A stretch of DNA of 42,647 bases from a virus. Its lineage: Duplodnaviria > Heunggongvirae > Uroviricota > Caudoviricetes. The notes under the pieces are model-generated. The model had not been told where the DNA came from, did no database searches, and saw nothing but the letters and a program-made list of their open reading frames with translations. The stretch lies in the IMG/VR virus record IMGVR_UViG_3300028797_000097; one strand, written 5' to 3'. This document shows, piece after piece, positions 7,406 to 25,085 of this stretch; position 1 is the first letter of the stretch, and each line of letters starts with the position of its first letter. A program made the translations under genes and the position numbers.

Positions 7406-7410
7406 CGAAA

Positions 7411-7502
7411 GTTTTTCCATAACCTCCTGATGATGATAGAGGCACCTGGGTGAAATATCCCAGGTGTTTCTTATTTACAAAATATCCAAATTTTTCTATA
7501 TT
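7411..7502 (+). repeat. Intergenic cassette copy 3
   Basis: Identical 26-nt motif, stem gaggcacctggg/cccaggtgtttc, promoter. Confidence 0.85.
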
Positions 7503-7525
7503 ATAGATGTAACACGGAGGTTATC

Positions 7526-7756
7526 ATGTTTAAGAAGTTCATAGAAAGAATCAAAGCAGCATTCACGTTTAAACCGACTGCCATCAAACTCGACCCAAAG
7601 AATTTTACTCCATTTCAATGGAATTTGATTCAGAAGCATGAACGTTTCATTGGGGAAAAGAATCGTAACTATTTCCGTGACCATGCGGAAGATTGGGCTA
7701 AATGCTGGGATGAAGAATATTACCGAGCAAAAACTGCCACAGCAAGAGGTAAGTGA
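7526..7756 (+). CDS. Hypothetical early protein
   Basis: GGAGG RBS. Confidence 0.7.
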   Translation: MFKKFIERIKAAFTFKPTAIKLDPKNFTPFQWNLIQKHERFIGEKNRNYFRDHAEDWAKCWDEEYYRAKTATARGK

Positions 7757-7772
7757 TTAATTTAAAAACAAG

Positions 7773-7809
7773 AATTCAGGGTTACAAAACTCTGGATTTT
7801 TTCTATATT
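7773..7809 (+). promoter_or_regulatory. Hairpin-embedded early promoter/terminator
   Basis: aattcagg-GTTACAaaac-tctggatt-tttt, TATATT at N17. Confidence 0.7.
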
Positions 7810-7842
7810 ATAGATGTAACCAACAAATAAAAGGAAATTAAA

Positions 7843-8007
7843 ATGACACTCGTTTTCGCAATCATCGCAATCGTATGCATCTGTTTTGGGATTTGCCAAC
7901 TCTGTGGCGGCTATGCGGTGGGTTCTGGTTTCGCTGCTATTCTATTTGGTGTGGTATTGGCATTGCAGGAATGCGTTGGCGTCATCGATGTGATACCTAT
8001 GGTTTAA
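7843..8007 (+). CDS. 54-aa two-helix membrane peptide
   Basis: AAGGA RBS; almost entirely hydrophobic. Confidence 0.6.
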   Translation: MTLVFAIIAIVCICFGICQLCGGYAVGSGFAAILFGVVLALQECVGVIDVIPMV

Positions 8008-8023
8008 ATCAAAGGAGTCAAAC

Positions 8024-8215
8024 ATGAATTTTGAAGAATTCCGGAAAATGGTTGTATCTCGTGTCTATGACATGCGATATCCCCACGTGAGTGATGAAAA
8101 AGTGGACCAGATCATTGAAGCACATAGCGATATGATCAGCGATGAATTCGCCGATGATCCTACCGAAGATGGTGCCGACTGGGTTGCTCGTGAAATAGTA
8201 GCGTACTTCATGTAG
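8024..8215 (+). CDS. Small acidic hypothetical protein
   Basis: AAGGAG RBS. Confidence 0.65.
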   Translation: MNFEEFRKMVVSRVYDMRYPHVSDEKVDQIIEAHSDMISDEFADDPTEDGADWVAREIVAYFM

Positions 8216-8278
8216 TAACGTGGTCGGAACCACATTCGCGTTATAAGACCATGTTCTAATTACCCTATATATTTGACC

Positions 8279-8286
8279 TATAAATA
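8279..8286 (+). promoter_or_regulatory. T4-type late promoter
   Basis: TATAAATA upstream of the patatin gene. Confidence 0.7.
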
Positions 8287-8312
8287 TTAAAAACGGTATT
8301 TAAAGGTCATTT

Positions 8313-9182
8313 ATGGGTAAAAAACAATTATGTATAAGCGTTGAAGGTGGTGGTGCTTTAGGAATCGGTCCTTTAGCATTTATGTGTAGGATGGAGCAGG
8401 ATTTAGGGAAGAAAATATCAGATTTAACTTCCGCATTCACTGGTACGTCTACTGGAGCTATTATCGCTGCATGTTTGGCAGAGGGAATGAGTGCACATGA
8501 GGTGTTTGACCTATACAGGAACAATTTAAAGAAGATTTTTACCAAGTATTCCTGGTATAAGCGTCTCCAACCAAAATGCCCTACATACGACAATACGAAC
8601 CTTAAGAAGCTCCTTCAAGCTAATCTTAAGGGTAAGTGCAGCGATTGGAAAAAGCCTATCTACATCACCTCTACGTTCATGAATGGTGATTCTGTGGAGA
8701 AGGTTTGGGACTTAGGAGATAAAGAAACCGACAAATGGTTTGCGGTCCTTTCCAGTACAGCAGCGCCGACATACTTCGATGTATTGGAACGCAATGGTGA
8801 ATCATACTGCGATGGTGGTATGTGGGCAAATTGTCCGGCAGACATAGTAATTGCAGGTCAGTTTAAGCAGGGGAACAAGAATCTTAAGCTCCTCAACTTT
8901 AATACTGGTATGGACACACCAAATACGGAAAAGGGTAACAAGACATTACTTGGTTGGGCAGAATATATCTTCTCTGACTGGACAGCACGTTCTTCCAAAT
9001 CCCCAATCTACGAAGCAAAAGCTATTCTTGGTAACGATGCTGTGTTCGATGCCTCTCCGAAGCATAATAAGAAGATTAAGATGGATAAGGTAGATGATGA
9101 TACCATTAACCAGATTATCGATATTTGGCAAAAGTATTACGAATCCGTCAAACCAGACATAAAGGCATTCATGAATCGATAA
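8313..9182 (+). CDS. Patatin-like phospholipase
   Basis: EGGGALG oxyanion motif, GTSTG nucleophile elbow, SSTAAPTYF, DGG. Confidence 0.92.
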   Translation: MGKKQLCISVEGGGALGIGPLAFMCRMEQDLGKKISDLTSAFTGTSTGAIIAACLAEGMSAHEVFDLYRNNLKKIFTKYSWYKRLQPKCPTYDNTNLKKLLQANLKGKCSDWKKPIYITSTFMNGDSVEKVWDLGDKETDKWFAVLSSTAAPTYFDVLERNGESYCDGGMWANCPADIVIAGQFKQGNKNLKLLNFNTGMDTPNTEKGNKTLLGWAEYIFSDWTARSSKSPIYEAKAILGNDAVFDASPKHNKKIKMDKVDDDTINQIIDIWQKYYESVKPDIKAFMNR

Positions 9183-9192: not shown

Positions 9193-9948
9193 ATGTTTAC
9201 GAACGACTATTGCCAATATGTCTATGATTACTTCAATAAGGATTTCTTCCAGAAAGAACTTGGAGTCAAGCTTGGAAAGTGTACGATCTTCACCAACAAG
9301 AAAGGTGATGCGAAGAAGATCTTTCCATCAAGCTTAAACGGGGATAAGGAGGATGATCCATTCGGCCTTTCCATAACTCTGTTAGGACATAACTACATCT
9401 GGATCAACCCGTTACTCCTCAACAGCAAGAAACTCCTAGTCAACACCATTCTCCATGAGATGATTCACCTGTATGTCAACGCTGTGGGTAACAACGGATC
9501 CAGACGTTACCGTCAAGGACATGGAAAGCTTTGGACCCAGACAGCGAAGTATGCCCAGTCGTTGTACGGTGAAGACCTCGGTAATATAGAACAATTCGCG
9601 ACCAAAGATGAGATGAAGAAGTATAACCATTATTACGGAATCAGAACAACTAAGTCTCTGGTCAATGCGTATTTGGTTAAGCTCACATCAGGTGATTTGG
9701 TTCCGTTGAAGGATTTAACTCCAGAACAGATTGTGGAACTCCAGGGGATGAATATCATTGGTATTTACCAGGTGAAACCAGGAATCCAGCAGGAACCGAG
9801 CAAGAGAGTAACAAAGTTCATCGATTGGGACACGCTTATCGATTGTATCGAAAACGGAATCGATTATGAAACAGAATCGGTCTGTGGTCATTTAAGGATT
9901 AAAATAGGTGAGGACACCGATACAGTTTGGCTTAGAAGACGCGGATAG
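9193..9948 (+). CDS. SprT-like zinc metalloprotease
   Basis: TILHEMIH followed by GHG..W; N-terminal Y..FN..FF. Confidence 0.8.
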   Translation: MFTNDYCQYVYDYFNKDFFQKELGVKLGKCTIFTNKKGDAKKIFPSSLNGDKEDDPFGLSITLLGHNYIWINPLLLNSKKLLVNTILHEMIHLYVNAVGNNGSRRYRQGHGKLWTQTAKYAQSLYGEDLGNIEQFATKDEMKKYNHYYGIRTTKSLVNAYLVKLTSGDLVPLKDLTPEQIVELQGMNIIGIYQVKPGIQQEPSKRVTKFIDWDTLIDCIENGIDYETESVCGHLRIKIGEDTDTVWLRRRG

Positions 9949-10442: not shown

Positions 10443-10477
10443 CTCCTCATTAGTTGCCAGAAACAAAGAATATACAG

Positions 10478-10516
10478 AAATCTAGGGTTGACAAAGCCCT
10501 AGGTTTTTATTATATT
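10478..10516 (+). promoter_or_regulatory. Hairpin-embedded early promoter/terminator
   Basis: aaatctaggg-TTGACAaag-ccctaggttt-tt, TATATT at N17. Confidence 0.78.
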
Positions 10517-10538
10517 ATGCGCATAAACAAGAGGATTT

Positions 10539-11330: not shown

Positions 11331-11369
11331 AAAGTCCGGGGTTACAAAACTCCGGATTTTTTCTATATT
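11331..11369 (+). promoter_or_regulatory. Hairpin-embedded early promoter/terminator
   Basis: aagtccggg-GTTACAaaac-tccggattt-ttt, TATATT at N17. Confidence 0.75.
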
Positions 11370-11519: not shown

Positions 11520-11550
11520 ATTGATACCTCCCCGTTCATATAAATAATAT

Positions 11551-11988
11551 ATGAATTGGAAGGATTACATCACAGAAGCTGAGGAGATTCTTGAACAGAA
11601 CCAACTTGACGAGAAACTGGTACGGAAATACCATGTCGAGAATGGTTTAAAGAAGGTAAAGGTAGTCTCCGATAAGCCTGGTTACAGAGTGGAATACGAC
11701 GATAATCACCAACCACATGAGGTGAAGATTACTAAGGCGGAAGAGATGCATCGTCGTATGGGCGCAAAGGTCGGTAAGTTAAAGCACAATAAGGCGCGAG
11801 AACAGGCATTGCGTAAAAAGTCTTTCCTTAAGCGTGCACGCGCTGGTCTGGATTACAATAAGGATGTTCCAGAGCTTAACACCAGGCGCGAACAAGGAGA
11901 AACTCTTAAATCTGACCAGAAAGGCTTGTTAAAACAGAAACTCCAGAATCTTAAAGACAAGCTGATGAAAGACATTGTTAAGGTATAA
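11551..11988 (+). CDS. Prohead core protein-like (T4 gp68 family)
   Basis: Late promoter at 11539; N-terminal YITE/A; basic region ending RKKSFLKRARAGL, resembling the gp68 C-terminus. Confidence 0.55.
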   Translation: MNWKDYITEAEEILEQNQLDEKLVRKYHVENGLKKVKVVSDKPGYRVEYDDNHQPHEVKITKAEEMHRRMGAKVGKLKHNKAREQALRKKSFLKRARAGLDYNKDVPELNTRREQGETLKSDQKGLLKQKLQNLKDKLMKDIVKV

Positions 11989-12019
11989 AAAAGAACCGGT
12001 TGTTATGACCGGTTTTCTT
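11989..12019. terminator. Bidirectional terminator between convergent units
   Basis: aaaagaaccggt-tgttatg-accggttttctt. Confidence 0.75.
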
Positions 12020-12422
12020 ATATCTCCTGTAACAGATCTTCCGTTCTGACCTGATCCAGCTCTATCTTAACCTCTGCGATATGGTTTAAGATCCACCATT
12101 CCGGATAAATAATACCATTTATGTCGATTATGTACCTGATATAATATACCTGACCTTTCTCATGTCCGCGATGATCCTCATGTAAGATTCTAGTCGGAAA
12201 ACGATAGTGTAGGAGTGGAACCCAGCTTTCGCATTTCCTGTACAGGGATGAAGCAGGAACAGGATAATCGCGCTGGCGAATTCTAGCATCACCCTCGCCC
12301 ACGATGTACCATATTCCGTCATGCTGGTGCAATCGGGGTTTGGACAGGTTAAAGGTACAATCCCATTCCCATACAGGATCATGGTATGATCCATAACTCC
12401 TTATCTCCTGTAACTTAATCAT
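12018..12422 (-). CDS. Array A paralog 11
   Basis: MIKL... to IDING...HIAEVKIELDQVRTEDLLQEI. Confidence 0.8.
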   Translation of the reverse strand: MIKLQEIRSYGSYHDPVWEWDCTFNLSKPRLHQHDGIWYIVGEGDARIRQRDYPVPASSLYRKCESWVPLLHYRFPTRILHEDHRGHEKGQVYYIRYIIDINGIIYPEWWILNHIAEVKIELDQVRTEDLLQEI

Positions 12423-12792
12423 CGATCTCCTGTATTACCTTTTCCGTGTGTATGTCCTCGATCAGCGCCTTAACCTCACTGAAATGATCCAGGAGGTATG
12501 TGTAATCATATACCTTACCATCAATCAGCAAGTCAATATCATGGGTACGCTTGGTGTAATCGATTTCCGCGTATTCGCCAATCCAGTCATGCGCGAAATG
12601 CCCGATGTACGCGAATGAGGTGTTCTTCTTCCGGTCGTACACCGATATATAAGTATCATCCTGTAAGTCTAGCTGGTTGAGGTTGGAAATAGGTGATACG
12701 ACCTTTTCTATTACTGGATCTATCGTATTTTCCAGATGCGTTTCTGTTCCGTGTGAATAATAGCTTGTAACTTTAAACTGTACCCTACTCAT
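12415..12792 (-). CDS. Array A paralog 10
   Basis: LLIDGKVY...HFSEVKALIEDIHTEKVIQEIDD. Confidence 0.8.
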   Translation of the reverse strand: MSRVQFKVTSYYSHGTETHLENTIDPVIEKVVSPISNLNQLDLQDDTYISVYDRKKNTSFAYIGHFAHDWIGEYAEIDYTKRTHDIDLLIDGKVYDYTYLLDHFSEVKALIEDIHTEKVIQEIDD

Positions 12793-13234
12793 CCATCCCC
12801 TTCAGATATAATTCCGTATTGTAATCGCTGATTTGGGACTGTAACCACGCGAAGTTCTCCTTAACCTCGTCATGCCAGTATTCCGTATCGTCTACGACCA
12901 GACAGAAGAAAGGTCCTGGATTCGTTTCTACTCCTGGTGGAGGCACATTCATACAGTCACTGGAATTAATGGTACAACCGTTAAACCAATCGCTATACCG
13001 TACTGTACCATCCTCCTCAATCTCTGATAGGTTGAATGTAACAGCGAGAACCTCACCAGTATGGATGTCACACCATTCCTGTCGATGTAACACCAGTGGT
13101 TTTGGGAGATCTATGTCCTCGCTGACCCATTCTGGATCCCCAAGCGTACCTCGAAGAGTAACATCCTTACCCTTTACCGTTCCGTGAATGTACATCCTGT
13201 TATGACCCTTGAAATATTTTCTCAATTTAATCAT
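12785..13234 (-). CDS. Array A paralog 9
   Basis: MIKLR... to LVVDDTEY...NTELYLKGMDE. Confidence 0.8.
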   Translation of the reverse strand: MIKLRKYFKGHNRMYIHGTVKGKDVTLRGTLGDPEWVSEDIDLPKPLVLHRQEWCDIHTGEVLAVTFNLSEIEEDGTVRYSDWFNGCTINSSDCMNVPPPGVETNPGPFFCLVVDDTEYWHDEVKENFAWLQSQISDYNTELYLKGMDE

Positions 13235-13592
13235 CTGTAATTTCCTCGATTAACTGTCTGGCAACAGCATCGCTTATAATCGCTCTCATTTCCGTTTCAT
13301 GGGAGTAAATGTCACTGTACCTGTACTCCTTACCATCTATCTCCAGATAGGTTTCATAGTTCAGGAACGTACCGATTTCGAACTGACAATGAGGAGTCTT
13401 AGGAAAACCACCATCCTCGCGTGGATCATAGAAATTGATTTCCAGTCTGTACTCACCTACTCCAGGATGGTAGTGTCGGGTTAATGGAGTAGGTTTGGTC
13501 TTGAGGAGAATAATCGGATACGATAAATCCGGAATATTCGTACTGTTTTGAGCTTTCTCGTTAAATGCTTTCGAAACTACTTTGATCATCAT
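13227..13592 (-). CDS. Array A paralog 8
   Basis: LEIDGKEYRYSDI..H..E...QLIEEITDD. Confidence 0.8.
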   Translation of the reverse strand: MMIKVVSKAFNEKAQNSTNIPDLSYPIILLKTKPTPLTRHYHPGVGEYRLEINFYDPREDGGFPKTPHCQFEIGTFLNYETYLEIDGKEYRYSDIYSHETEMRAIISDAVARQLIEEITDD

Positions 13593-13911
13593 CTATCTCC
13601 TGTAATAGCTTTTCCGTATATATACGATCGAATAACACCTTAAGTTCAGCGTAATGCTCCTTCACCTGTGCTTCATCGTACTCCTTATCATCTATCACCA
13701 GAATGGTACGGATTGTTCTGTACCCGTCCTTATCCAACTTCCATGTATCACCTATCCTGTCCCATGTATTCCACTCACTGGGAATCCCATCCCAACGATA
13801 GCTAATAGCTGGTACGGAACTCCTATCATCGAGGTGTACATCAAGGATGGTTTTGTCTTCTACCTTCTCCTCTGGTGTTCCAAGGTCGGTTATTGTACGT
13901 AGCTTAATCAT
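13561..13911 (-). CDS. Array A paralog 7
   Basis: LVIDDKEY...HYAELKVLFDRIYTEKLLQEIDD plus a short extension. Confidence 0.8.
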   Translation of the reverse strand: MIKLRTITDLGTPEEKVEDKTILDVHLDDRSSVPAISYRWDGIPSEWNTWDRIGDTWKLDKDGYRTIRTILVIDDKEYDEAQVKEHYAELKVLFDRIYTEKLLQEIDDDQSSFESI

Positions 13912-14215
13912 CTATCTCCTCTAAAAGCTTTTCCATACGCTCCTGGTCCAGTAACACCTTCACCTCAGCGTAATGCTTGCGAATCTTCTCTGCCCTGTAT
14001 TCCGTACCATTTATGACCAATGACGCGATAAAATCGACAAAACCTTCGCTATTCATGTATGTACCTAAAACGGAATAGTGTGATCCTGGGTACTCAGAAC
14101 TGCGGTCATAATGTACAGCGAGACCACACTTATCTTCTGATAGTACGACATTCCATATTTCTGCTTCTCGTACCTTAACTCTGGGGTAACAGTTCATGTA
14201 CCGTATCTTTACCAT
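13904..14215 (-). CDS. Array A paralog 6
   Basis: LVINGTEY...HYAEVKVLLDQERMEKLLEEIDD. Confidence 0.8.
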   Translation of the reverse strand: MVKIRYMNCYPRVKVREAEIWNVVLSEDKCGLAVHYDRSSEYPGSHYSVLGTYMNSEGFVDFIASLVINGTEYRAEKIRKHYAEVKVLLDQERMEKLLEEIDD

Positions 14216-14547
14216 TCTATCTCCTGCGTTATGGTTTCGATGTTTATCTCTGCTTCATAGTCTGACATTGCTGTCATAAGCTTTGCTGGTTCTTCCAGAA
14301 GTGAATAGGAGCGTACCCATTGCGAGGTAATTAGCTCCAGGAAGATACTGTCGGATTCGATCCAGTTCCGATTGATTCGCATACAGATTGGGGGTTGTCC
14401 CATGTCCTCCTGGATCCAATACTCCAGTTGAAACACTCCATCAAGGAGATAATACCTGTACCCATTGACCAGCTCATCAACTACTGGTTCTGGCGCTACG
14501 GAACGATCGTCACGCGGATTCTGTACTGTGTAATGAACCTTAATCAT
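14209..14547 (-). CDS. Array A paralog 5
   Basis: IFLELITSQW...LMTAMSDYE...TQEIEW; most similar to paralog 4. Confidence 0.8.
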   Translation of the reverse strand: MIKVHYTVQNPRDDRSVAPEPVVDELVNGYRYYLLDGVFQLEYWIQEDMGQPPICMRINRNWIESDSIFLELITSQWVRSYSLLEEPAKLMTAMSDYEAEINIETITQEIEW

Positions 14548-14842
14548 CTATCTCCTCTAAAAGCTTTTCCGTTTCATAGTCTGACATCGCGGCCATAAGT
14601 ACAGTGGGGGATTCAGCGAAGGAGTACTTCCTGGTCCAGCGTGGGGTTTCCAGTTCTAGGTAGATCCTGTCATAATGGAGATTCCACCCCTTACCGACAT
14701 GCATCGGTTCTGGGGGTTCATCTGGACCCATCCATTCCCTATAGAAGAATTCGAATTCACCATTATAGATCTGGTACTGGTATTCTCCAAATACCGGATC
14801 CACGATTACCGGATCCACGTTCTCATACCTGATCCGAATCAT
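14540..14842 (-). CDS. Array A paralog 4
   Basis: IYLELETPRW...LMAAMSDYETEKLLEEIDD. Confidence 0.8.
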   Translation of the reverse strand: MIRIRYENVDPVIVDPVFGEYQYQIYNGEFEFFYREWMGPDEPPEPMHVGKGWNLHYDRIYLELETPRWTRKYSFAESPTVLMAAMSDYETEKLLEEIDD

Positions 14843-15203
14843 CTATATCCTCCAACAGGTGTTCCGTCTCGTTTATGTCCAGTAACGACCGTACCTCTGC
14901 GATATGGGTTACAATCTCTGAGTAACGCCATTCCTTACCGTCTATCTCCAACCATGAGTCGTGATTGGTGAATCGACCCAGCCTGACCTTATGCATCTGA
15001 TGTACCTTCTCCGTATCGGTAAGGGAGTACCAATGAGGAGTATCGTAATACTGTATCTCCAAGTACTTGGTGTCGATCGCGTCTATTTGCCGTTCCATCT
15101 TATGCGGATCCACGTCCATGAGACGTAGCTGTACCAGGTGATACACCTCACTGGGATGAGGATCCTCGTTCAGGTCCGGAATATGGAGTAACACCTTAAC
15201 CAT
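14823..15203 (-). CDS. Array A paralog 3
   Basis: LEIDGKEWRYSEI..HIAEV...ETEHLLEDIDD. Confidence 0.8.
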   Translation of the reverse strand: MVKVLLHIPDLNEDPHPSEVYHLVQLRLMDVDPHKMERQIDAIDTKYLEIQYYDTPHWYSLTDTEKVHQMHKVRLGRFTNHDSWLEIDGKEWRYSEIVTHIAEVRSLLDINETEHLLEDIDDSDQV

Positions 15204-15672
15204 CTATCTCCTCCAGTAATGTATCAGTACGGATCTGGTCGAATAACACCTTCATGTCCATCATATGTTCCTTCAAGTACTCGAACGGGTATTCTTTCCA
15301 GTTGATGTACAGTATGGACTTACAGGGGTACAGGATGGTGTTGATCCCATGCGCGAATCTGGTTTTTCCAACACGGAGATTCTGTATCTCCTCCCTGTAC
15401 ATACTTGGAGGCGGTTCCAAGTACCGACCAATGTCTATCTTCACCCTATCTCCTACCTTACGAAGCGGATCATGCCCCTTCCATGACTGGACTCGACCCC
15501 GAATAACAATCGATTGGTTCGACATCTGTACCCGATAGTCCTTAAGATTATAGGTTTCCAGTTCTATCGTAACAGATTTAGGATCCAGGGTATGAGAGGA
15601 GAAATCCAGCTCCGGTTTTATTCCATCCCATTTACACTGATAGGAGTACATTTCTACTGTAACGTTATACAT
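15196..15672 (-). CDS. Array A paralog 2 (start reassigned to MYNVTV)
   Basis: GGAGGA RBS and overlap junction at 15672; LYINWKEY...HMMDMKVLFDQIRTDTLLEEIDG. Confidence 0.8.
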   Translation of the reverse strand: MYNVTVEMYSYQCKWDGIKPELDFSSHTLDPKSVTIELETYNLKDYRVQMSNQSIVIRGRVQSWKGHDPLRKVGDRVKIDIGRYLEPPPSMYREEIQNLRVGKTRFAHGINTILYPCKSILYINWKEYPFEYLKEHMMDMKVLFDQIRTDTLLEEIDG

Positions 15673-16123
15673 CCATGTCCTCCAGTAACATATCAGTACG
15701 GACTTGGTCCAGGAGAATGCGTAAGTCATTCAAATGATCTCGTACATACTGGTTATTATATTCCGTACCATCTATAATCAATGTACTGTGGCGCGTGATG
15801 TTTATATACTTAACCGTTGGACTTATCCGGAATTGTTTTGCATATCTAGCGCGTTCCACATCTGTTATCGCCCTGTCCTCATCCAGTGTGAATAGCCAGG
15901 ATTCTCCCTTTCTCCTTAATACCCAACTATCATCCACAACCTTTCCGTCCTGATCATGTAGTTCTGTAACAATAGCGTTAACCTTCATAATACTAGGATC
16001 CATAGCGAAATATCCCAGAGAAACGGAACAAGGATCCAACAGGAACTCGTGATACCACGATCCTGGAATGATTCCTTCCCTACTGTACTTATACCTGTAA
16101 TTCCGTACTAAAACACTATGCAT
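15665..16123 (-). CDS. Array A paralog 1
   Basis: LIIDGTEY...HLNDLRILLDQVRTDMLLEDMDV. Confidence 0.8.
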   Translation of the reverse strand: MHSVLVRNYRYKYSREGIIPGSWYHEFLLDPCSVSLGYFAMDPSIMKVNAIVTELHDQDGKVVDDSWVLRRKGESWLFTLDEDRAITDVERARYAKQFRISPTVKYINITRHSTLIIDGTEYNNQYVRDHLNDLRILLDQVRTDMLLEDMDV

Positions 16124-16149
16124 ACATCTCCAGTAATTTCATATCCCTA

Positions 16150-16178
16150 AATATAACAAATCTTTTACCATCTGTCAA
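16150..16178 (-). promoter_or_regulatory. Early promoter driving array A
   Basis: TTGACA-gatggtaaaagatttgt(17)-TATATT on the minus strand. Confidence 0.8.
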
Positions 16179-16253
16179 TACCCAAGTTATCTGAATAATA
16201 AAATATACAGAATTAGTATTTACATTTATTCCAAATTTTTCTATATTATGAAC

Positions 16254-16358
16254 ATGAACGAACGAATTGACAACATCAAACATTTCATTGGTCTCGGCAT
16301 CATTAACATTGTTTGCCGCATCTGTAAAATCCATTATCTGCACGTTATCAAGAGTTAA
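16254..16358 (+). CDS. 34-aa peptide, probably leaderless
   Basis: TTTACA(16219)-N17-TATATT(16242), then ATG near +1; MNERIDNIKHFIGLGIINIVCRICKIHYLHVIKS. Confidence 0.4.
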   Translation: MNERIDNIKHFIGLGIINIVCRICKIHYLHVIKS

Positions 16359-16458
16359 CTGCAAAAAAGAAAATCTAGAATTTAGGGTTTACAAATCAAT
16401 CAAAATTAACTATATTTAAATCATCGAAAACAACCAATCATCAAAAGGAAAAATCATC

Positions 16459-16836
16459 ATGGAACAGATTATCAACATGATTCTCGGTCAGTCCAACATC
16501 AATCTCCAGGCATTCGGTTTGAATGTTCAGAACCAGACAGCACAGCCGACCACTGTGGAAACCATCCAGGCAAAAATCAATCTCATCAAACAGCTCGATT
16601 CCATTCCGGCAGCACATCAGTTTGTTGAAGATTTCCAGATTGAAACTGTGAACCAGTTGGACAGTCTGATGAATATGGAATCTGTTATCGGTCTCAAGCC
16701 GACTGACGCTCAACTCTGGGCCATCAACAACAAGATCGATGCTATCATCAATGAACTCGAGACTGGTCTGAAGAACAAGATGCTCGCTCAGCTCAATGGT
16801 CTCGGACTCGGTGCTCTGAGTGGTCTGGTCCACTAG
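16459..16836 (+). CDS. Gln/Asn-rich helical hypothetical protein
   Basis: TTTACA-N17-TATATT promoter at about 16388-16416; AAAGGA RBS. Confidence 0.7.
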   Translation: MEQIINMILGQSNINLQAFGLNVQNQTAQPTTVETIQAKINLIKQLDSIPAAHQFVEDFQIETVNQLDSLMNMESVIGLKPTDAQLWAINNKIDAIINELETGLKNKMLAQLNGLGLGALSGLVH

Positions 16837-17275
16837 GGCTGACCTGGGGGGTGTCAGATTGTCTGACGCCCTTATATGACCTGCCTGACGTCAAGAGATC
16901 TGACGCCATATGGGCATAACGTCAAGGTTTACGACGTAGCCTACGACGCCCCGGGGGCCCCGGGGGGGGCGCCCCCCGTACTGACACCCCGGCGCAAAAC
17001 GGGAACGGGCTTGAAAAAAATGTGTCGAGGCCATATAGGGCTTTAAACCCCCTGGGGGAGGGGGGCCCGGGGCCTTATAGGTTTTGTTTTTCGTGTGTGT
17101 CTCTCTCTCCCAAAAAATAAAAAATTTTAAAAATTTTTGGTTATTTTCTGGTTATCAGGTTATTTCTGGTTCTCTGGTTATTCTGGATTTCAGGATAACC
17201 TTTTATTTTACCCCCGCCCGGGCTTGTTTTTGAAAAGGCTGTCTGCCAAAAAATTTTTTGAAAAATTTTTTTATA
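16837..17275. other. Non-coding GC-rich palindrome/repeat element (candidate replication origin or genome terminus)
   Basis: (T)GACG/CTGAC repeats, G/C homopolymer palindromes, TCTGGTTA-like repeats, A/T tracts, no ORF. Confidence 0.55.
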
Positions 17276-17281
17276 TCCGGG

Positions 17282-17310
17282 TTGAAAAAAGGGCTATTTT
17301 TTGATATATT
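17282..17310 (+). promoter_or_regulatory. Early promoter driving array B
   Basis: TTGAAA-N17-TATATT. Confidence 0.7.
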
Positions 17311-17319
17311 TGGTATATT

Positions 17320-17691
17320 ATGGATAATATGGATATGGAACCTTTATTGAAGTCGTATATTAGGTATGCGATGGGATTTGTGCCTAAGGAGCGGATGGCA
17401 TATGCTACTAATAATGGTAAATATGACCGTATTAAGATATTGGTTAATTCTAAGGGTAATATAATTGAAGAAAATACATATGCTATAACCTTTGAGTTAT
17501 ATAATGGTGAACAGCGTATTATTATAGGTAGTTTGTGGTTATCGGGAAGGAATCTTTATATAATAGAGACGGTATGTAATATCGTATTATATAGAAGACA
17601 TATACAGGAAATGATGGAATTTAATGAATTTTGTGAAAAGAATAATAATATTCCTAAGGGTATATTGAAGATTCCTACGAGGTTAGTATGA
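17320..17691 (+). CDS. Array B paralog 1
   Basis: LKSYIRYA... to IPKGILKIPTRLV. Confidence 0.8.
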   Translation: MDNMDMEPLLKSYIRYAMGFVPKERMAYATNNGKYDRIKILVNSKGNIIEENTYAITFELYNGEQRIIIGSLWLSGRNLYIIETVCNIVLYRRHIQEMMEFNEFCEKNNNIPKGILKIPTRLV

Positions 17692-18053
17692 CAGATTTTG
17701 ATAGTTTAAAATCATATATTGCGTATATTGTGAAAAATACAGGTTTTAAGGTTGAGCAGTGGCTATTACTGTCATTGGTAAATTTAAATAAGGAAAGTAT
17801 TAAGATAACGACTATATTGAATGATGGTAGTGCGTTATTCGATATATTGGATTATTTAGGGAATAATAAGATTATTGGTCGTATATGGTTTAATTGTAAC
17901 CATATAGTGCTTGTTAAAAATGAGGTTGAGCGTTCGCTGTTATATATTGGTTGGCCTGAAGATGTCGATTTATATAGTGTATTTGAGAAGAAAGTGATGT
18001 TACCTGTGGTTCCTTCTGGAATTTTGAAGATTCCTACTGATTTTAAGGTATGA
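17688..18053 (+). CDS. Array B paralog 2
   Basis: LKSYIAYI... to LPVVPSGILKIP. Confidence 0.8.
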   Translation: MTDFDSLKSYIAYIVKNTGFKVEQWLLLSLVNLNKESIKITTILNDGSALFDILDYLGNNKIIGRIWFNCNHIVLVKNEVERSLLYIGWPEDVDLYSVFEKKVMLPVVPSGILKIPTDFKV

Positions 18054-18054
18054 T

Positions 18055-18456
18055 ATGATAGATATTAGCGGAATAACTATGAAAGAATTGACAGAATATG
18101 CCGATTACTGTATGGGTAAGATACCTATAGAGGAGCGTTCTCGATTTCCTGGCGAGATGCGGGGAATAAGTAACGAGGTACGGTGTGACCGATATCATGG
18201 AGTTGAATCTGCTATAATAGATGCAAGCCCTGAGGATAAGAGTTTTATTATAGACATATATGATTCTAGTCGTAGGCAGGTTATGGCGGCTAGGATATGG
18301 TTGAACAACGGGCGTATTTATTTGATTGATTGGCTTGAGACTAGTTTATTATATGATAAGACGCCTGATGGGATTGAAACTTTTGAGGAGTTTAAGGCGA
18401 GGATAACGTTACCTAAGGTTCCTGCTGGGATATTGAAGATACCGGAGAGAATATGA
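18055..18456 (+). CDS. Array B paralog 3
   Basis: LTEYADYC... to LPKVPAGILKIPERI. Confidence 0.8.
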   Translation: MIDISGITMKELTEYADYCMGKIPIEERSRFPGEMRGISNEVRCDRYHGVESAIIDASPEDKSFIIDIYDSSRRQVMAARIWLNNGRIYLIDWLETSLLYDKTPDGIETFEEFKARITLPKVPAGILKIPERI

Positions 18457-18824
18457 GATATAGTGATTGGGAAATATTAATGTATGTAAGGTATTGTCTG
18501 GATAAGGTTTTATATTTTCAGGAAGGTGATCATATAAAAATGAGACATGATCATATAAAACTGAGACATGATTTTTGTAGTGATAGTATTATTATATATC
18601 CAGATAATACTGTTATGGCAGATATATTTTCTATGGGTGGAAGTCTTAAAACGACTGTCGCATTAAGTTTGGGTGAAGTTCATATTTATGCAGTGGATAT
18701 GATAGGTTATACGACATTATATGATGGAAGGCCTGCTACTGTAATGAATATTTCAGAATATATTGACAGTATAACGTTGCCTAAGGTTCCGAAAGGAATA
18801 TTGAAGATACCGGAGAAGTTATAA
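18453..18824 (+). CDS. Array B paralog 4
   Basis: LMYVRYC... to LPKVPKGILKIPEKL. Confidence 0.8.
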   Translation: MRYSDWEILMYVRYCLDKVLYFQEGDHIKMRHDHIKLRHDFCSDSIIIYPDNTVMADIFSMGGSLKTTVALSLGEVHIYAVDMIGYTTLYDGRPATVMNISEYIDSITLPKVPKGILKIPEKL

Positions 18825-19204
18825 TGTATATCGAGAATTATAAAGAAGAATTGATGGAATACATTAAGAGTTCTTTGGATAAGTTGCCATATAAGAGCGT
18901 ATTGTCGTCATTTGACCGGATTGAAATAACTGGGGAAGCGAATAATAATGGGGAATTTAAAGTAGAGTCTGGTATATTGTTTGATATGTGTAATGCAGAA
19001 AATGTAGTTATGTCGGGCTGTGTTTGGTATGATTATGGAACAATATACATTATAACAAAAAATGAAGATTATGAACATTATTATGCTTCAAATTGTTTAT
19101 ATTATGGACATCCTGATACATCTGTTGGTTTTGAAGAGTTTTTGAACAGTCAATTACCTAAGGTTCCAGTTGGTATTTTGAAACTTCCAGAGAGGGTTGC
19201 ATAA
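18824..19204 (+). CDS. Array B paralog 5
   Basis: LMEYIKSS... to LPKVPVGILKLPERVA. Confidence 0.8.
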   Translation: MYIENYKEELMEYIKSSLDKLPYKSVLSSFDRIEITGEANNNGEFKVESGILFDMCNAENVVMSGCVWYDYGTIYIITKNEDYEHYYASNCLYYGHPDTSVGFEEFLNSQLPKVPVGILKLPERVA

Positions 19205-19662
19205 TGACAAATTCTGAAATTGTTAAAGGATATGTATCGTATTGTATTTGTTATGTTCCTCGTGTTCATACAGCACGAGGTGAGATGCCGCTTGCGATAT
19301 TTAAGTTGGCTAATGTAAATATAGAACAGAATTCTAATGGAATTAACTACATTAATTTTGATTTGGTTGACGAATATGGGGTAATGTTTGCCGCGAATCA
19401 AAATTCATTTTATGAAAGAGCATTAAATCCTTATGGATTTTATAATGCTGGTTTAAACCATGTTGTTGTAAAAGGAAATATATCTATGAAGACTGGATAT
19501 ATTCAGTTAATAGATACATTTAATGGTCGGTGGTTTTACAGCGGGATTCCTGATAGTATTCGGACTTTTGACCAATATGTGGAAAATTTGGAAGAACGTG
19601 GACTTAAAGAGAAACCTAAGGGATTGTTGAAGATTCCTGCACATATGATGACAGCGGTATAG
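19204..19662 (+). CDS. Array B paralog 6
   Basis: VKGYVSYC... to KPKGLLKIPAH. Confidence 0.8.
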   Translation: MTNSEIVKGYVSYCICYVPRVHTARGEMPLAIFKLANVNIEQNSNGINYINFDLVDEYGVMFAANQNSFYERALNPYGFYNAGLNHVVVKGNISMKTGYIQLIDTFNGRWFYSGIPDSIRTFDQYVENLEERGLKEKPKGLLKIPAHMMTAV

Positions 19663-19663
19663 A

Positions 19664-20023
19664 ATGGCAGAAATTATAAGTAAAGAAACTGATGATGTGG
19701 AAACATTATATAAATATGTCCAATTCTGTCTTGAGAAAGCCAGAGTCGGGAAGTTATATAATTTGACTTTAGAAAAGCTGACAAAAACAGGAAATTTATA
19801 TTTTTATTATATGACGCAGAATTCTGGAACTCTTAGGATAATGTGTTATATTAATTTACATACATGTTATTATAATGCGTTTGAACCACGATGTCGTCGG
19901 TATATTCATCATAGTATAATAAAGGGAATACCTAATTATATTGATTTTGCAAGTAATAACGAACAAGGATTTGTAAGTGTTCCGAAGGGAATATTGAAGA
20001 TTCCGAAAAATTTAGGAGTATAA
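19664..20023 (+). CDS. Array B paralog 7
   Basis: LYKYVQFC... to VPKGILKIPKNL. Confidence 0.8.
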   Translation: MAEIISKETDDVETLYKYVQFCLEKARVGKLYNLTLEKLTKTGNLYFYYMTQNSGTLRIMCYINLHTCYYNAFEPRCRRYIHHSIIKGIPNYIDFASNNEQGFVSVPKGILKIPKNLGV

Positions 20024-20024
20024 T

Positions 20025-20405
20025 ATGCAACAATATACAGATTTTGAATTAACCAGGGTAAATAGTTATTTCAGGTTATGTATTGATTCGATTAAGGATA
20101 AGTTAGATCTTGAAACATATAACCTTGGTGTAATTTTACCTCATGGATCGGTTATTACATGTGTAGTTAAGTGTTATAAGAAGCCTCGTAATAAAATGGA
20201 TTTATATTCTGTTCTTTATAGGGATTATGCATTGCCTAAACAATATTATTGCATGATTGATGTTAAGCGAAATAATATAACGGTTAAGAACTTAGATGAT
20301 GGTGAAACATTATTTAGAGGAAAAACCGGAGTTAATACCACTTTTTCGGATTTTGTGTATGGTAAAGTTCGAAAAGGATTATTGAAAATTCCAGCAAAGT
20401 TATAA
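20025..20405 (+). CDS. Array B paralog 8
   Basis: VNSYFRLC... to KVRKGLLKIPAKL. Confidence 0.8.
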   Translation: MQQYTDFELTRVNSYFRLCIDSIKDKLDLETYNLGVILPHGSVITCVVKCYKKPRNKMDLYSVLYRDYALPKQYYCMIDVKRNNITVKNLDDGETLFRGKTGVNTTFSDFVYGKVRKGLLKIPAKL

Positions 20406-20408
20406 AGA

Positions 20409-20434
20409 AAAAGACCTGATTAACAGGTCTTTTT
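20409..20434 (+). terminator. Terminator ending array B
   Basis: aaaagacctg-attaa-caggtcttttt. Confidence 0.8.
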
Positions 20435-20455
20435 ATTTTACCCTATAAATAATGT

Positions 20456-21820
20456 ATGACGAAATTATCAGAAAGTGAGAAGTTTAATGACCTTGATATA
20501 AATCGATTGGCTAGACAGGTTAGACAGAATGACGGTCGTGCTAATCGAGGGATTGTATATCAGGACGATAAGCGATATAATGATTATCAGGGTGAGAAAT
20601 GGCTGGATGTAAGAAGTAAGGATAAGAAAACTCTTATTGCAGCTATCCTTGACGGTATGTCTGATGTTCAATATCATTATAAGGGAAAGTTATATAAAGA
20701 TATTAAGAACGAGGATGATTTAATGGCCTCATACGAAGCCAATAAGGCTGTTGTGGACTCGATTTTAAATTTCCTAAGTAAATATATGCATGGACATACA
20801 ACGGTCTACAGAGGCTTCGGATTTAGCTCTGATGAGTATCGTAGGATGAAGCACAAGAATAATATTACATTTGAACATCAGTTCTTGAAAATATTGAATA
20901 ATAGGGGTAAGAAATTTAATTCTTTTAGTGTTTCTCCATTTATAAGTAAGGATTTTGCAGAAGGTGGTGGTAATAAAGCCATTGTCATTGCCGCAGATGT
21001 AGAACCGAATGATATTGCTTTCGCATTTACTGCTTATTTGTTGGGAAGACATGGAAGTCCTGAAGAATTGGAATTGAATATCAATAACCTTAAGGATTTA
21101 AAGAATTTAAGAATTATTAAAGATATTGATGCTGAATGTGCACGATTTGTTAAATATACAGATACAGAAGAAGAATTACAGAAAAGATTGGATTCTGGCG
21201 AATCTATGGAATCTGTATTTAAGTATGTAAAGAAACTTAAGGTTTTTAGCGGAACAATTTATAAATGTGGAACATTATGTGGTGAGGTTATTGTCAAGGA
21301 TAATAAGATTGTTGTTCCTCGTAGTAGAGAAATACATTATATAAAAGACGGAATATTTGTTATTACTCCTATGGATGATCCTACTGAACATAATATATTG
21401 TATAACTTTAATAATGAAACTAAGAGCAAGTCATATGAAGGTATATTATTCTATGGTGCTGATAGCGATGATAAATTGATAATCGCATATAATGGTGATA
21501 ACAAGTATACATTATTGGATATGGAAACATGTGAATCGAAATTCAAGGGATATGCAAAGAAAATTTCACGCTTACCAGGAGTTACATGGTACGGGCAGAA
21601 AAATATTTGGCATACTGTTGAATTTTATTTAGTAACATTAATGGATAACACAGTTACAATTTTCAACAATACTGGTCATTGTGTATTCAGACGTGCCCCA
21701 TATACGTTTACTAAGATTGATTGCGACTCAGATAAATTGATAATGACTTGTCTGGAACAACCTGGTAAAAAACCTCGACGATTCTCAATCAAAAATAATT
21801 TAGCAATCGAAGAAATGTAA
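20456..21820 (+). CDS. Putative ADP-ribosyltransferase (R-S-E type) with C-terminal beta-repeat region; late gene
   Basis: TVYRG...FNSFSVS...EELEL motif order; TATAAATA at 20444. Confidence 0.55.
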   Translation: MTKLSESEKFNDLDINRLARQVRQNDGRANRGIVYQDDKRYNDYQGEKWLDVRSKDKKTLIAAILDGMSDVQYHYKGKLYKDIKNEDDLMASYEANKAVVDSILNFLSKYMHGHTTVYRGFGFSSDEYRRMKHKNNITFEHQFLKILNNRGKKFNSFSVSPFISKDFAEGGGNKAIVIAADVEPNDIAFAFTAYLLGRHGSPEELELNINNLKDLKNLRIIKDIDAECARFVKYTDTEEELQKRLDSGESMESVFKYVKKLKVFSGTIYKCGTLCGEVIVKDNKIVVPRSREIHYIKDGIFVITPMDDPTEHNILYNFNNETKSKSYEGILFYGADSDDKLIIAYNGDNKYTLLDMETCESKFKGYAKKISRLPGVTWYGQKNIWHTVEFYLVTLMDNTVTIFNNTGHCVFRRAPYTFTKIDCDSDKLIMTCLEQPGKKPRRFSIKNNLAIEEM

Positions 21821-21857: not shown

Positions 21858-24800
21858 TTAATAAAAGAATTCGTCTAATGCTGAATCTTCCAATATTAAT
21901 TCGTCGCCTTTTCTCATCCATTTTGAAATAATATACATGGATTCAAATAGGGCACAGAAAGATTTTCTAAACATTGTTTCATAGTCGATTGTAAACAATG
22001 AATCGAACTCCTTTGGCCAGCTATCCAAGAATGCGACAAAGTTAACTGGATTCAAACCTGACTTACCGACTTCCTTATACTTGAACTCATTATTTGGCAA
22101 TACATAAATGTATTTCATCTTTGTATTGTTGTTAATCGGGTTAAGTTTCAATCTCTTCTTTGCGACAACATAGTTATAAGTTAATGCTGCTTTTGCACCG
22201 AAAATAACTGAAGCATTATCACCCTTATCGAATTCAAGACCATTCTTTACATAGTAATCGATTGGTTCTGGAATGTATTTCTTATAATTAGAAATACCGA
22301 TAACTGCAGAAATTTCATTGACACTGGAATTACAATATTTTGTATACGTGTCCTTGATGAATCTATCTGCATGGTCCTTAGACATACCATTACAAATATC
22401 GAATGCTAACTTTTCAGCTGCAACTTTACAGAAGTCAGGCATTGTAGATTTCTTAATAGGAACACCCATGATCTTGTGTTTCGGTCCTTCTGGATGTTTC
22501 TGCATAGATTTCGGCAATGCTTTCCATTCTTCTTCAGTCATTGCAAACTTATCGATTTCACCCATTGGGAAGATAGAACCTTCGTTATCGATTACGTTAC
22601 CAATATAGAGTTTCTTTGCGAAACAGAACATGTTGGTAAAGATATTTTCTCTGTTGAACTTAATCAACTGTTCAGTCTTCTTTAGCTTAGCCTTATAAGC
22701 AAGAACTCCGTTATAGAAATCCTGGAACATCTTTTCTGCCTTTTCGAAGAATGCTCTATATTCATCTGCAACAGACTTGTTGTAATCCATGATTGCTCTA
22801 TTCTTCTTATGCATTTCTGCAAGCTGAGCATCAGTCATTCTATCTTCTGGATGTAACAATTCCTTGATTTGTCTACCAGAGAAATAACCTTCTTCGATAA
22901 GTCTTTGTTTGATTTCATGAATACACATATAACAAGAGTCAGTATCGTTATGGATAATGCAAGCTTCTCTATTAGTAATCTTTAACGACGCCTTGTTCTT
23001 TAATGTAATACCGAAATACTTTTCAATATCTCTGATACATTCTGGTGTTGTATAATAATTATTACAGCACTTAGACAACCAGTCTCTTAAAGTAACTCTT
23101 GCACATCTACAAATTGCTCTAGCACAGTCTGGGTTATAAAGATGGAAGGAACCAGCAAGGGAAACACCATAAACAGAGTTAATGATAAGCTTTTTCGTCA
23201 TCTGTCTATTGTGACAAAGATTTTCCATGTCCTTATCACCTGCAATCTTTGCTTCTTCTTCTTTCTGTTTCCAAATCTTTCTTTCAGCAAAAACTTTCTT
23301 AACAATATTCGGAAGAATTGCATCGTCAGTTCTTAAGAAACCAACTTCTGCAACGTCTGACAATATAACTTCACCAGATTCAATCTGTTCCTTAGTCGGA
23401 TGTCTAACGACAGTTTCTGGAGAAATATTGAACATCATAATGTGGTGAGGATAAGACGACGTAATATCGAATGACATACAATCGTCAAATCTACCAGGAT
23501 AGTCATAACAGTAACCTGCCTTAGTTGCAAACTTTTCAAATGGATGAGGCCATGCTTTAAACTTTTCCATGTCTTCAGAGAAAAGTTGTGCAGTTGACCT
23601 AAATACGCCTTTAACCTTTTTCGGTTTCCAGAACTTTGCAATATCACCACGATAAATTTCAATGCTTTCGCCCTTGTTGATCTTATCCTTGATTTGATAC
23701 TTTATAAATTCTGGATTATCATCTTCCCATTCAGTGTTCTGATAGTAGATGGAACCATCTTTTTGCTTAATCTTATAACATTCTTCTTCAGCCCACCAGT
23801 CTTCATGTTCTTTCTGTTTATCGAGAAGAACTTTACCGTGTTCATGTAAGAATCTAAGAATATAACCAGTCGTTGTAGGAACTTTATTTTGAACTTTATC
23901 AAGAGTAACAAGACAGTCGAAAGCATATTCAATAAGTAACGGAATGAGCTTGTTCTTTTCTTCCATTCTAACGATAAGCATAACGTCTTTTCGGTTATAC
24001 TGTGCGAACCTATCCCAATTATACTTATAGGTTTCGTTAATGGAACCATCATATTCGAGCTTACTATCTTCAAGTTCAAAATTAGCAACATAGTTAAGAG
24101 AATAAGAAGGCATTGGAGGATGGTTTCCAAAGACCTTATACAATTCCATATAGTCGATAGAATACAAGCCAGGAATATCATAAGACATGCCTAAATCAAC
24201 ATCTTCGAGCTTACGGTCAGTAATCTGTTTTGTTTCAGGCATTTTATTGAATGGAGATAACTTTCTTTCCCATTCAGTCCTAACATCTTTATTCTTTAAT
24301 CTTAACTTATTACATCTGTTTACAATATAAGGAACGTCATAAGAGACAGAGTTCCAACCAGAGATAATATCGAAATCCTGTTTCTGGAACCACTTAGTCC
24401 ACTTATCAATCAAATCAATTTCATTTTTACAAGGAATATAGTTTGGTAATTCTTGAACATCACCAAAATATGGTTTTAAGCCCCAAGTATAAGATTGTTT
24501 TGTTTTGGTCGAATAACACGTAATTAAGTTAATTGGCCATTCTGCTTTTTCTGGAGCTGGGAATTCATAAGTAACATAACATGAGTCTTCATACTTGACC
24601 CACATGTGTTGTTGTTCATCGAAAACTTCGTATTTAGATTTATCTTTACACTTTGTATCAAAAGCATATAATTCACATTGACCGAATTTCTTTCTATCGA
24701 TACTTCTGATTTCGATTATATGATCGTCATAGAATGGAGAAGAACCTGCAACTTCAATATCGAAGAAGCAAGTATTCCAATCACTAATGTCTACTGATAA

Positions 24801-25085
24801 TTCAGCTTTATCATAACGTTCATGCATGAATTTGACTTCTGGTTTTAAGTCTGATTCTGCAATGATTGCACCTGATGCTTTTAAAGCTGCGATTTCGTCT
24901 TTATTTGTATAATCATATCGTTTTAACGACCTCTTATACATATCTTTATATTCACCCTTATTTTCTGGGTCTGTAATATAACACCATGGTGAATATTTAA
25001 ATTTTTGCCAACCTGGAACGCCTTGTTCTTTCAGGTATATATTTTTCTTAAAGCTATCGAAATAGCAATTCTTAAATCCTGTCAT
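21858..25085 (-). CDS. Family B DNA polymerase (T4 gp43-like)
   Basis: ExoI FDIE, ExoII GWNS..YD, ExoIII YN..D; pol motifs FDITSSYP, K...NSVYG, DTDS, KKLY; C-terminal SALDEFF clamp-binding-like tail. Confidence 0.95.
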   Translation of the reverse strand: MTGFKNCYFDSFKKNIYLKEQGVPGWQKFKYSPWCYITDPENKGEYKDMYKRSLKRYDYTNKDEIAALKASGAIIAESDLKPEVKFMHERYDKAELSVDISDWNTCFFDIEVAGSSPFYDDHIIEIRSIDRKKFGQCELYAFDTKCKDKSKYEVFDEQQHMWVKYEDSCYVTYEFPAPEKAEWPINLITCYSTKTKQSYTWGLKPYFGDVQELPNYIPCKNEIDLIDKWTKWFQKQDFDIISGWNSVSYDVPYIVNRCNKLRLKNKDVRTEWERKLSPFNKMPETKQITDRKLEDVDLGMSYDIPGLYSIDYMELYKVFGNHPPMPSYSLNYVANFELEDSKLEYDGSINETYKYNWDRFAQYNRKDVMLIVRMEEKNKLIPLLIEYAFDCLVTLDKVQNKVPTTTGYILRFLHEHGKVLLDKQKEHEDWWAEEECYKIKQKDGSIYYQNTEWEDDNPEFIKYQIKDKINKGESIEIYRGDIAKFWKPKKVKGVFRSTAQLFSEDMEKFKAWPHPFEKFATKAGYCYDYPGRFDDCMSFDITSSYPHHIMMFNISPETVVRHPTKEQIESGEVILSDVAEVGFLRTDDAILPNIVKKVFAERKIWKQKEEEAKIAGDKDMENLCHNRQMTKKLIINSVYGVSLAGSFHLYNPDCARAICRCARVTLRDWLSKCCNNYYTTPECIRDIEKYFGITLKNKASLKITNREACIIHNDTDSCYMCIHEIKQRLIEEGYFSGRQIKELLHPEDRMTDAQLAEMHKKNRAIMDYNKSVADEYRAFFEKAEKMFQDFYNGVLAYKAKLKKTEQLIKFNRENIFTNMFCFAKKLYIGNVIDNEGSIFPMGEIDKFAMTEEEWKALPKSMQKHPEGPKHKIMGVPIKKSTMPDFCKVAAEKLAFDICNGMSKDHADRFIKDTYTKYCNSSVNEISAVIGISNYKKYIPEPIDYYVKNGLEFDKGDNASVIFGAKAALTYNYVVAKKRLKLNPINNNTKMKYIYVLPNNEFKYKEVGKSGLNPVNFVAFLDSWPKEFDSLFTIDYETMFRKSFCALFESMYIISKWMRKGDELILEDSALDEFFY

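Follow-up and report, generated by a model that had tools for sequence, protein, structure and literature searches.

In large DNA viruses, genomic accordions such as the amplification of K3L in poxviruses and the multigene families (MGF) of African swine fever virus (ASFV) involve proteins whose host targets have been demonstrated. In bacteriophage T4, the internal proteins IPI, IPII and IPIII carry an N-terminal capsid-targeting sequence that is cleaved by the prohead protease; these proteins are virion cargo, and IPI* has an anti-defence role. Origins of the iteron type are known from phage lambda (lambda ori) and from plasmids. The closest described systems also include the hyperplastic regions (HPRs) of T4-type phages with their PeSL promoter/terminator cassettes (Arbiol et al., 2010, PMC2839356; Comeau et al., 2014, PMC4122927). 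Here, a locus of an uncultured phage is compared with these systems. It lies in a viral DNA stretch of 42,647 nucleotides (IMG/VR record IMGVR_UViG_3300028797_000097; the whole stretch is called the window) and consists of two divergent tandem arrays of small paralogous genes, array A and array B, separated by a short gene (gene X) and a conserved noncoding element. The evidence tips toward a hyperplastic accessory-gene slot beside the DNA polymerase gene (polB) that holds two independent early effector operons, with A and B as neighbours at a plastic site and not halves of one machine.

The first-pass annotation of this locus had described two diversified paralog families with oppositely charged tails, and both families proved to be real. 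In a profile search of the window, all 11 genes of array A (minus strand) match the family-A profile (E 4e-21 to 2e-36) and all 8 genes of array B (plus strand) match the family-B profile (E 4e-25 to 2e-42). The last 15 residues carry a net charge of -3 to -7 in A proteins and +1 to +5 in B proteins, as had been described. The proposed design of a variable body followed by a constant tail fits family A better than family B. In family A, the N-terminal beta-rich part is variable and the C-terminal ~45 aa are conserved as a strand (L.IDG.EY) and a long helix ending in ..TE.LLEEIDD; an AlphaFold2 (AF2) model of an A protein, with a predicted local distance difference test score (pLDDT) of 81.4, contains a beta-barrel and a helix at residues 80-109. 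Family B, by alignment, forms one alpha+beta domain and cannot be called a variable body plus tail, because its conserved positions run over the full length. The B proteins end in an invariant G-[IL]-L-K-[IL]-P motif (GILKIP) followed by 3-7 residues. In the AF2 model of a B protein (pLDDT 81.5), a helix, eight strands and a further helix precede a low-confidence tail outside the folded domain, as expected of a short linear motif, and GILKIP is thus predicted to be a disordered peptide. A 21-bp tandem repeat (2.2 copies, 96% match) at 18527-18572 in the fourth B gene duplicates the peptide DHIK(M/L)RHD.

The two tails are constrained in different ways. Neighbouring genes of array A overlap by 7-32 nt, mostly by 8, and nearly every junction reads ..GAG GAG ATA GAT GAT TAA, in which GGAGGAG is a Shine-Dalgarno (SD) sequence and the ATG within GAT-GAT-TAA is the start of the next gene (M-I-K..). 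The most distal acidic residues of the A proteins (EEIDD-stop) are thus dual-coded with the SD and ATG of the gene that follows, and translational coupling constrains them; in the final A gene, the terminal DD is missing. Upstream of EEIDD, the module made of the strand and a helix of ~25 residues is a genuine protein feature. For the tenth A gene, the true start is an internal MYNVTV, which restores the regular 8-nt overlap. An open reading frame (ORF) at 16116-16364 does not belong to the family; it overlaps the array-A promoter and is probably not a gene. The genes of array B abut or overlap by 1-4 nt, and the residues beyond GILKIP encode the ribosome-binding site of the next B gene. Within GILKIP itself, codons vary synonymously among the B genes, and selection on this motif therefore acts at the level of the peptide.

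Each array looks like a single operon, with a predicted sigma70-type promoter, overlapping or tightly abutting genes that are probably translationally coupled, and a terminator hairpin (Table 1). The promoters of the divergent hub between array A and gene X match the sigma70 consensus at 11/12 and 10/12 positions. One strong sigma70-type match per array agrees with the annotated single promoter; the early timing attributed to it would follow from promoter type. Promoter and motif scans did not find the late motif TATAAATA at either array start. The arrays point away from each other as had been claimed, but array A diverges from the promoter hub and gene X and not from the GC-rich element from which both arrays were said to diverge. 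The hub is 97% identical to that of a related strain (G001) and is conserved only in patches in the IMG/VR contig L011; a short repeat within it recurs at 3983-4032 and 10444-10518. In several runs, numerous DNA and RNA contigs match the window over just ~30-45 nt at 16384-16430 and then run into unrelated sequence; this promoter/leader motif is therefore repeated at other loci of the phage group. The leader block of array B is almost invariant in seven strains. Searches of Pfam and PHROG with gene X gave no match, and a phmmer search of related loci returned nothing even where blast finds an ortholog, probably owing to composition filtering. Compared with its orthologs, gene X has a ratio of nonsynonymous to synonymous substitution rates (dN/dS) of 0.27-0.30.

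Table 1. Predicted features of the two-array locus and its flanks, in window coordinates.
Feature	Position	Strand	Description
Late-type promoter and 145-aa gene	11539..11988	plus	TATAAATA-N4-ATG; convergent with array A; homolog in L026
Bidirectional terminator hairpin	11994..12014	both	ends array A and the convergent late gene (11551-11988); folding z-score -3.3
Array A	12018..16123	minus	11 tandem paralogs, 100-158 aa
Divergent promoter hub	16124..16458		335 bp, between array A and gene X
Array-A promoter	16178-16150	minus	TTGACA-17-TATATT, extended TG
Promoters toward gene X	16219-16247, 16388-16416	plus	
Gene X	16459..16836	plus	125 aa, predicted helical
GC-rich block	16837..17000		repeated CTGACG, ACGTCAAG and TACGACG motifs; TGACGTCA palindrome; G/C-run palindromes
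Long GC-rich hairpin, then T-run	17026..17090	plus	terminator-like, downstream of gene X; -33.5 kcal/mol
A/T tract and 18-bp tandem repeat	17106..17200		~3 copies, 9-bp sub-period GGTTATT/CTGG, iteron-like
Conserved leader block with array-B promoter	17201..17319 (promoter 17282-17310)	plus	TTGAAA-17-TATATT, extended TG, 10 nt before first ATG
Array B	17320..20405	plus	8 tandem paralogs, 119-152 aa
Array-B terminator hairpin	20403..20440	plus	-14.5 kcal/mol, z-score -5.6, then U-run
Late-type promoter and 454-aa gene	20444..21820	plus	TATAAATA-N4-ATG; right of array B; homolog in L026 (45% identity)
PolB	21858-25085	minus	with the 454-aa gene, conserved anchor right of array B

The locus is stable in its order and variable in its content. 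The order array A, gene X, element, array B, 454-aa gene and PolB is shared by independent assemblies, and the junction between the arrays was found in at least five of them (G001 contig C83, the metagenome-assembled genome (MAG) G018, L011 and metagenome contigs from other samples); because it recurs independently, the objection that the junction might be an assembly chimera is refuted. Within the arrays, the alignment to G001 has gaps and an identity of 73-92%, versus 95-98% from 20.5 kb rightward. Strains carry 5, 9 or 11 genes in array A, and seven counts for array B gave 5, 5, 6, 7, 8, 8 and 9. Ortholog groups hold their order between strains while whole members are gained or lost, and these differences between close strains fit the expandable arsenal that had been proposed. 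For instance, G001 lacks B4-B6, with deletion endpoints in tail-coding DNA that leave a B3 body joined to a B6-type tail; this joint shows unequal recombination between conserved 3' ends. The slot is filled by two independent, lineage-restricted families of small soluble proteins, each arranged as one apparent operon between putative late genes of the T4 type. The arrays expand and contract when neighbouring paralogs undergo unequal homologous recombination at their conserved 3' ends, which encode the tails.

Compared with their orthologs, A genes have dN/dS values of 0.22-0.27 and B genes of 0.37-0.62 overall and 0.11-0.42 in the tail; for PolB, the values are 0.04-0.06. Values of 0.22-0.62 indicate that A and B are real genes under relaxed purifying selection, and ortholog dN/dS gave no evidence of gene-wide positive selection in either family. 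No further member of either family was found elsewhere in the window, in the 191-kb contig of the sister strain or in the rest of its 3-Mb MAG, and apart from a dispersed 10-member family A and B are the only sizeable paralog groups in the 191-kb contig. Among PolB relatives at 40-70% identity, neither family occurs within 10 kb of the polB gene. The two arrays always occur together, but within one narrow clade only, so shared ancestry trivially explains their co-occurrence.

Neither family has a match in Pfam, in PHROG or among cultured phages. At 90% identity, A and B fall into ~300 and ~230 clusters, respectively, all of unnamed metagenomic proteins, and at 50% identity family B amounts to just 23 clusters in a set of 1.84 billion proteins. 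A and B are orphan families, each confined to the same narrow clade of phages. Searches with Foldseek against PDB and BFVD and with VIA-align returned nothing above background. The best fold match reached Z 4.6 for A (root-mean-square deviation (rmsd) 2.2, 52 residues aligned) and Z 5.6 for B (rmsd 3.5, 91 aligned), both below background; chromo/PH-like folds for A and cystatin/NTF2-like folds for B were weighed and, being below background, not adopted. Look-alikes of B3 in the ESM Atlas scored at most 0.84, within the chance range. The A and B proteins are probably diversified effectors of host takeover or counter-defence. Their variable surfaces would address different targets, and the conserved C-termini, i.e., the terminal helix of A and the disordered GILKIP peptide of B, could provide a shared handle for a common partner.

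An outgroup shows that the slot can be filled differently. L026 (IMGVR_UViG_3300032038_000606), whose PolB is 70% identical, is the closest outgroup and is collinear on the polymerase side; it keeps homologs of the 454-aa gene, the 145-aa gene and a SprT-like gene (window 9193-9948). At L026:13064-21597, it carries 13 small acidic paralogs (isoelectric point (pI) 4.0-4.7), termed family C, in three sub-arrays on both strands, which occupy the place of array B and occur again further along on the opposite strand. Three groups of bodies can be told apart in family C, and every member has the same invariant end, DYIELDDIVL, a tail with synonymous variation that is not dual-coded. Profile comparison found family C unrelated to A or B (probability below 1%). 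Thus, arrays of small proteins that share an invariant peptide at the C-terminus occupy this slot repeatedly, and the family and its probable timing differ.

It is possible, if somewhat unlikely, that the slot is a dedicated site for tagged effectors. GILKIP in B, the acidic helix end in A and DYIELDDIVL in C would then be address tags that deliver interchangeable small domains to a common phage or host hub, and families with new tags would be swapped over time. The sliding clamp or a similar hub is a candidate partner for family C, because DYIELDDIVL loosely resembles the ..ALDEFFY C-terminus of PolB (in the region given as 25040-25085), which we take to resemble the clamp-binding tail of T4-type polymerases. 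Several small genes adjacent to and downstream of pol in the distant relatives L033 and L034 also have ends similar to ..L.(D/E)FF.

The central noncoding element (16.84-17.32 kb) is single-copy and conserved, with ~95% identity to G001 versus 73-92% in the flanking arrays, and it is nearly invariant in seven strains except at two indel-prone spots. The central region is composite and comprises terminator-like hairpins, the GC-rich motif block, an A/T tract with repeats and the array-B promoter. The GC-rich block (folding z-score -3.4) is nearly invariant across seven strains and occurs just once in the window, as it does in the 191-kb sister contig; its motifs are candidate protein-binding sites. 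Next to it, the long GC-rich hairpin has a z-score of -1.95, which is not significant on its own, and an invariant 21-nt core at 17054-17074 is kept in all related contigs. Tandem Repeats Finder (TRF) reports an array at 17139-17194 with a period of 18 and 3.1 copies adjacent to the A/T tract; the copies are few and short and may be a chance occurrence, and the number of 18-bp units differs between strains through indels. No initiator protein was recognised among the neighbouring genes, searches in and around the element gave neither a tRNA nor an Rfam match, and the cumulative GC skew of the 191-kb sister contig, which follows the direction of the genes, does not mark the element out. Most plausibly, the element is a cis-acting site such as a replication origin. 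A second GC-rich spot lies at 26705-26765, inside a 352-aa ORF (25912-26970), where the surrounding kilobase is strongly AT-skewed (-0.28).

The element also separates DNA of different composition. GC content drops from ~0.43 to 0.32 at ~17.05 kb, and GC content at third codon positions (GC3) is 0.43-0.60 for all genes to the left of the element versus 0.23-0.32 to the right (0.49 in A, 0.27 in B). Synonymous divergence from G001 is likewise higher on the left (A, 0.40; SprT-like gene, 0.47) than on the right (B, 0.20; PolB, 0.14). Since GC3 and synonymous divergence both differ across it, the element is a mosaic boundary between arms with different histories. Alternatively, the element could be a physical end of the genome: it would represent the termini of a linear genome, joined in the assemblies, and the arrays would be terminal blocks that enter the host first. 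The element is indeed unique and GC-rich, has homopolymer runs and lies at a sharp compositional boundary with divergent transcription, and one 173-kb MAG contig begins 390 nt to the left of its core. However, at least five assemblies read straight through the element, contig breaks cluster in the repetitive arrays rather than in the element, and T4-type phages package DNA by headful without fixed ends, which makes a genome end unlikely.

Several observations count against the reading as a plastic slot with two early effector operons and an adjoining origin. The promoter calls are consensus matches in AT-rich DNA, and 58 were found in the scanned region versus 40 expected. Contigs from RNA libraries cover parts of the locus, and strand, transcript ends and level cannot be read from them; the sequencing runs were read as assembled contigs, and arm-to-arm depth differences and uncovered RNA-library bins are uninformative. 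No homology or fold ties A or B to a known anti-defence or takeover protein in Pfam, PHROG and fold searches, the PADLOC library not having been searched. Local sequence features are all that points to an origin, GC skew being uninformative. Finally, the first family-C sub-array follows a TATAAATA-N4-ATG late-type start, and a virion-associated role is thus possible for such tailed families.

The late-type start of family C is one of the points that would favour virion cargo, in which the constant C-termini are packaging or targeting tags and the proteins are packed into the capsid for ejection alongside the DNA, as in the case of the internal proteins of T4 or the inner-body proteins of phiKZ. 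The combination of variable bodies and a constant short peptide at a polymorphic locus would also fit, as would the ClpP-like protein encoded near the arrays, which scores as a head-maturation protease. Conversely, the promoters of A and B are of the sigma70 type and neither array start has a late motif, the tags of the known systems are N-terminal and cleaved, and no protease-site pattern is common to all tails; cargo is therefore improbable as an explanation of A and B. Cleavage motifs of the T4 gp21 type (L/I-x-E) in the tails were considered and dropped, as they do not occur in all members and the encoded protease is ClpP-like.

Very improbable is a neutral or selfish expansion, in which the arrays arose as by-products of duplication at a site prone to recombination and serve no specific function. 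Frequent gain and loss, together with the failure to detect homologs or a known fold, would be expected of such an expansion, but every copy keeps an open frame and a coupled start, both families have dN/dS values far below 1, with those of the B tail even lower, and the order of ortholog groups is conserved between strains. The first-pass annotation had offered, as one functional locus around the element, a combinatorial system: the acidic tails of A would pair with the basic tails of B, or both families would dock on a common machine. This least credible reading is not supported, despite the opposite tail charges, the presence of both arrays in every genome where both sides are visible, and the single family with a single tail on both strands of the equivalent region in L026 (a hint that the arms can share a purpose), because A and B copy numbers (11/8, 9/5 and 5/6) are unmatched and do not co-vary, GC3 and a twofold difference in synonymous divergence point to different histories of the arms, the terminal EEIDD of A is dual-coded and lacks its DD in the last A gene, the B tail is weakly basic on bodies that span pI 4.5 to 9.3, co-occurrence is seen among very close relatives only, and gene X and terminator-like hairpins separate the arms.

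Judged by sequence, the source genome is that of an uncultured jumbo or mega phage of the T4 superfamily, because it combines a gp43-like PolB, the further genes listed below, enrichment of TATAAATA, relatives on large contigs and an origin in ruminant gut runs. PolB is 26-29% identical to cyanophage gp43 across 70-80% of its length, and a gyrase-type topoisomerase II, a split NAD-dependent ligase, GroES repeats, the ClpP-like head protease and a tail tube protein are also encoded. The late motif TATAAATA occurs at 16 sites versus 5.8 expected, often 4 nt 5' of a start codon. A gp43-type PolB and TATAAATA late promoters place the phage in the T4 superfamily, as a distant member; megablast of the locus against cultured phages gave zero nucleotide matches. 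PolB relatives sit on contigs of up to 424 kb, and the lineage probably includes megaphages. Relatives with 56-67% identity are carried by the IMG/VR contigs L027 and L047 (424163 and 411059 bases, both >400 kb), and a protein cluster identical to B3 of the window is recorded on a 415750-base contig.

Every sequencing run that holds the locus is a ruminant gut sample. The phage contigs G001:C83, G018:C134 and L021 (JAFRFB010000097.1), of 173-191 kb and, in one case, 419 kb, were binned in three Methanobrevibacter MAGs from goat gut, which is probably compositional mis-binning: an archaeal host is counted against by the sigma70-type and T4-type promoters, the NAD-dependent ligase and GroES, which indicate a bacterial host. 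One phage protein is labelled Bacteroidaceae. At the left end of the window, positions 1-9180 hold the split NAD-dependent ligase (1527-2651 and 2840-3670) and a patatin-like gene (8313-9182) and have no counterpart in the G001 contig, which starts instead with a 1-kb low-GC (0.29) gene of the dispersed 10-member family.

Ruminant-gut phage genomes of 190-425 kb are almost wholly unannotated, and this locus defines two new orphan protein families in them, or three with that of the sister clade. Their confidently predicted folds, the operon anatomy and the birth-and-death mechanism make A and B tractable candidates for takeover or counter-defence proteins. For this uncultured lineage of phages, the conserved single-copy element offers a concrete candidate origin or other cis-acting site. 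The recurrence, at one syntenic slot, of unrelated families that differ in their invariant C-terminal peptides suggests that short terminal docking motifs may be a general means by which large phages organise expandable effector sets.

Each of the known systems shares part of this anatomy. The T4 internal proteins resemble A and B in that unrelated or diverged bodies share a short constant peptide and the locus is polymorphic between related phages. Here, however, it is the C-terminal part that is constant, the promoters appear to be early ones, and no late motif was found at the array starts. The poxvirus and ASFV accordions share with this locus tandem paralogs, copy number changed by recombination, faster evolution than the core and presumed host antagonism. 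They differ in having demonstrated targets, whereas the present arrays have a putative function, are operonic, belong to a phage and carry invariant C-terminal motifs. Similar to iteron-type origins, the central element is a single-copy conserved noncoding site with iteron-like direct repeats at ~9/18-bp spacing beside an A/T tract, extra motifs and palindromes; unlike them, it has no identified initiator gene, its repeats are few and variable in number, and part of its structure consists of ordinary terminator hairpins.

The likeness to the HPRs of T4-type phages extends over several features. These are blocks of small, variable and mostly orphan genes between core genes of a T4-superfamily genome, with early sigma70-type promoters, in which close relatives differ by indels that arise from homologous recombination at short conserved sequences. 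At the present locus, a variable block between conserved core genes likewise differs by indels among close relatives, and a PeSL-like hairpin and promoter lie nearby at 11331-11369. No PeSL cassettes were found between the array genes, PeSL-like motifs occurring only outside the arrays, and the array genes leave no room for such cassettes because they overlap or abut. In contrast to the described HPRs, each block here is a tandem paralog array that appears to form one coupled operon behind a single promoter, and the recombination sites are the conserved 3' coding ends of the paralogs rather than promoter/terminator cassettes.

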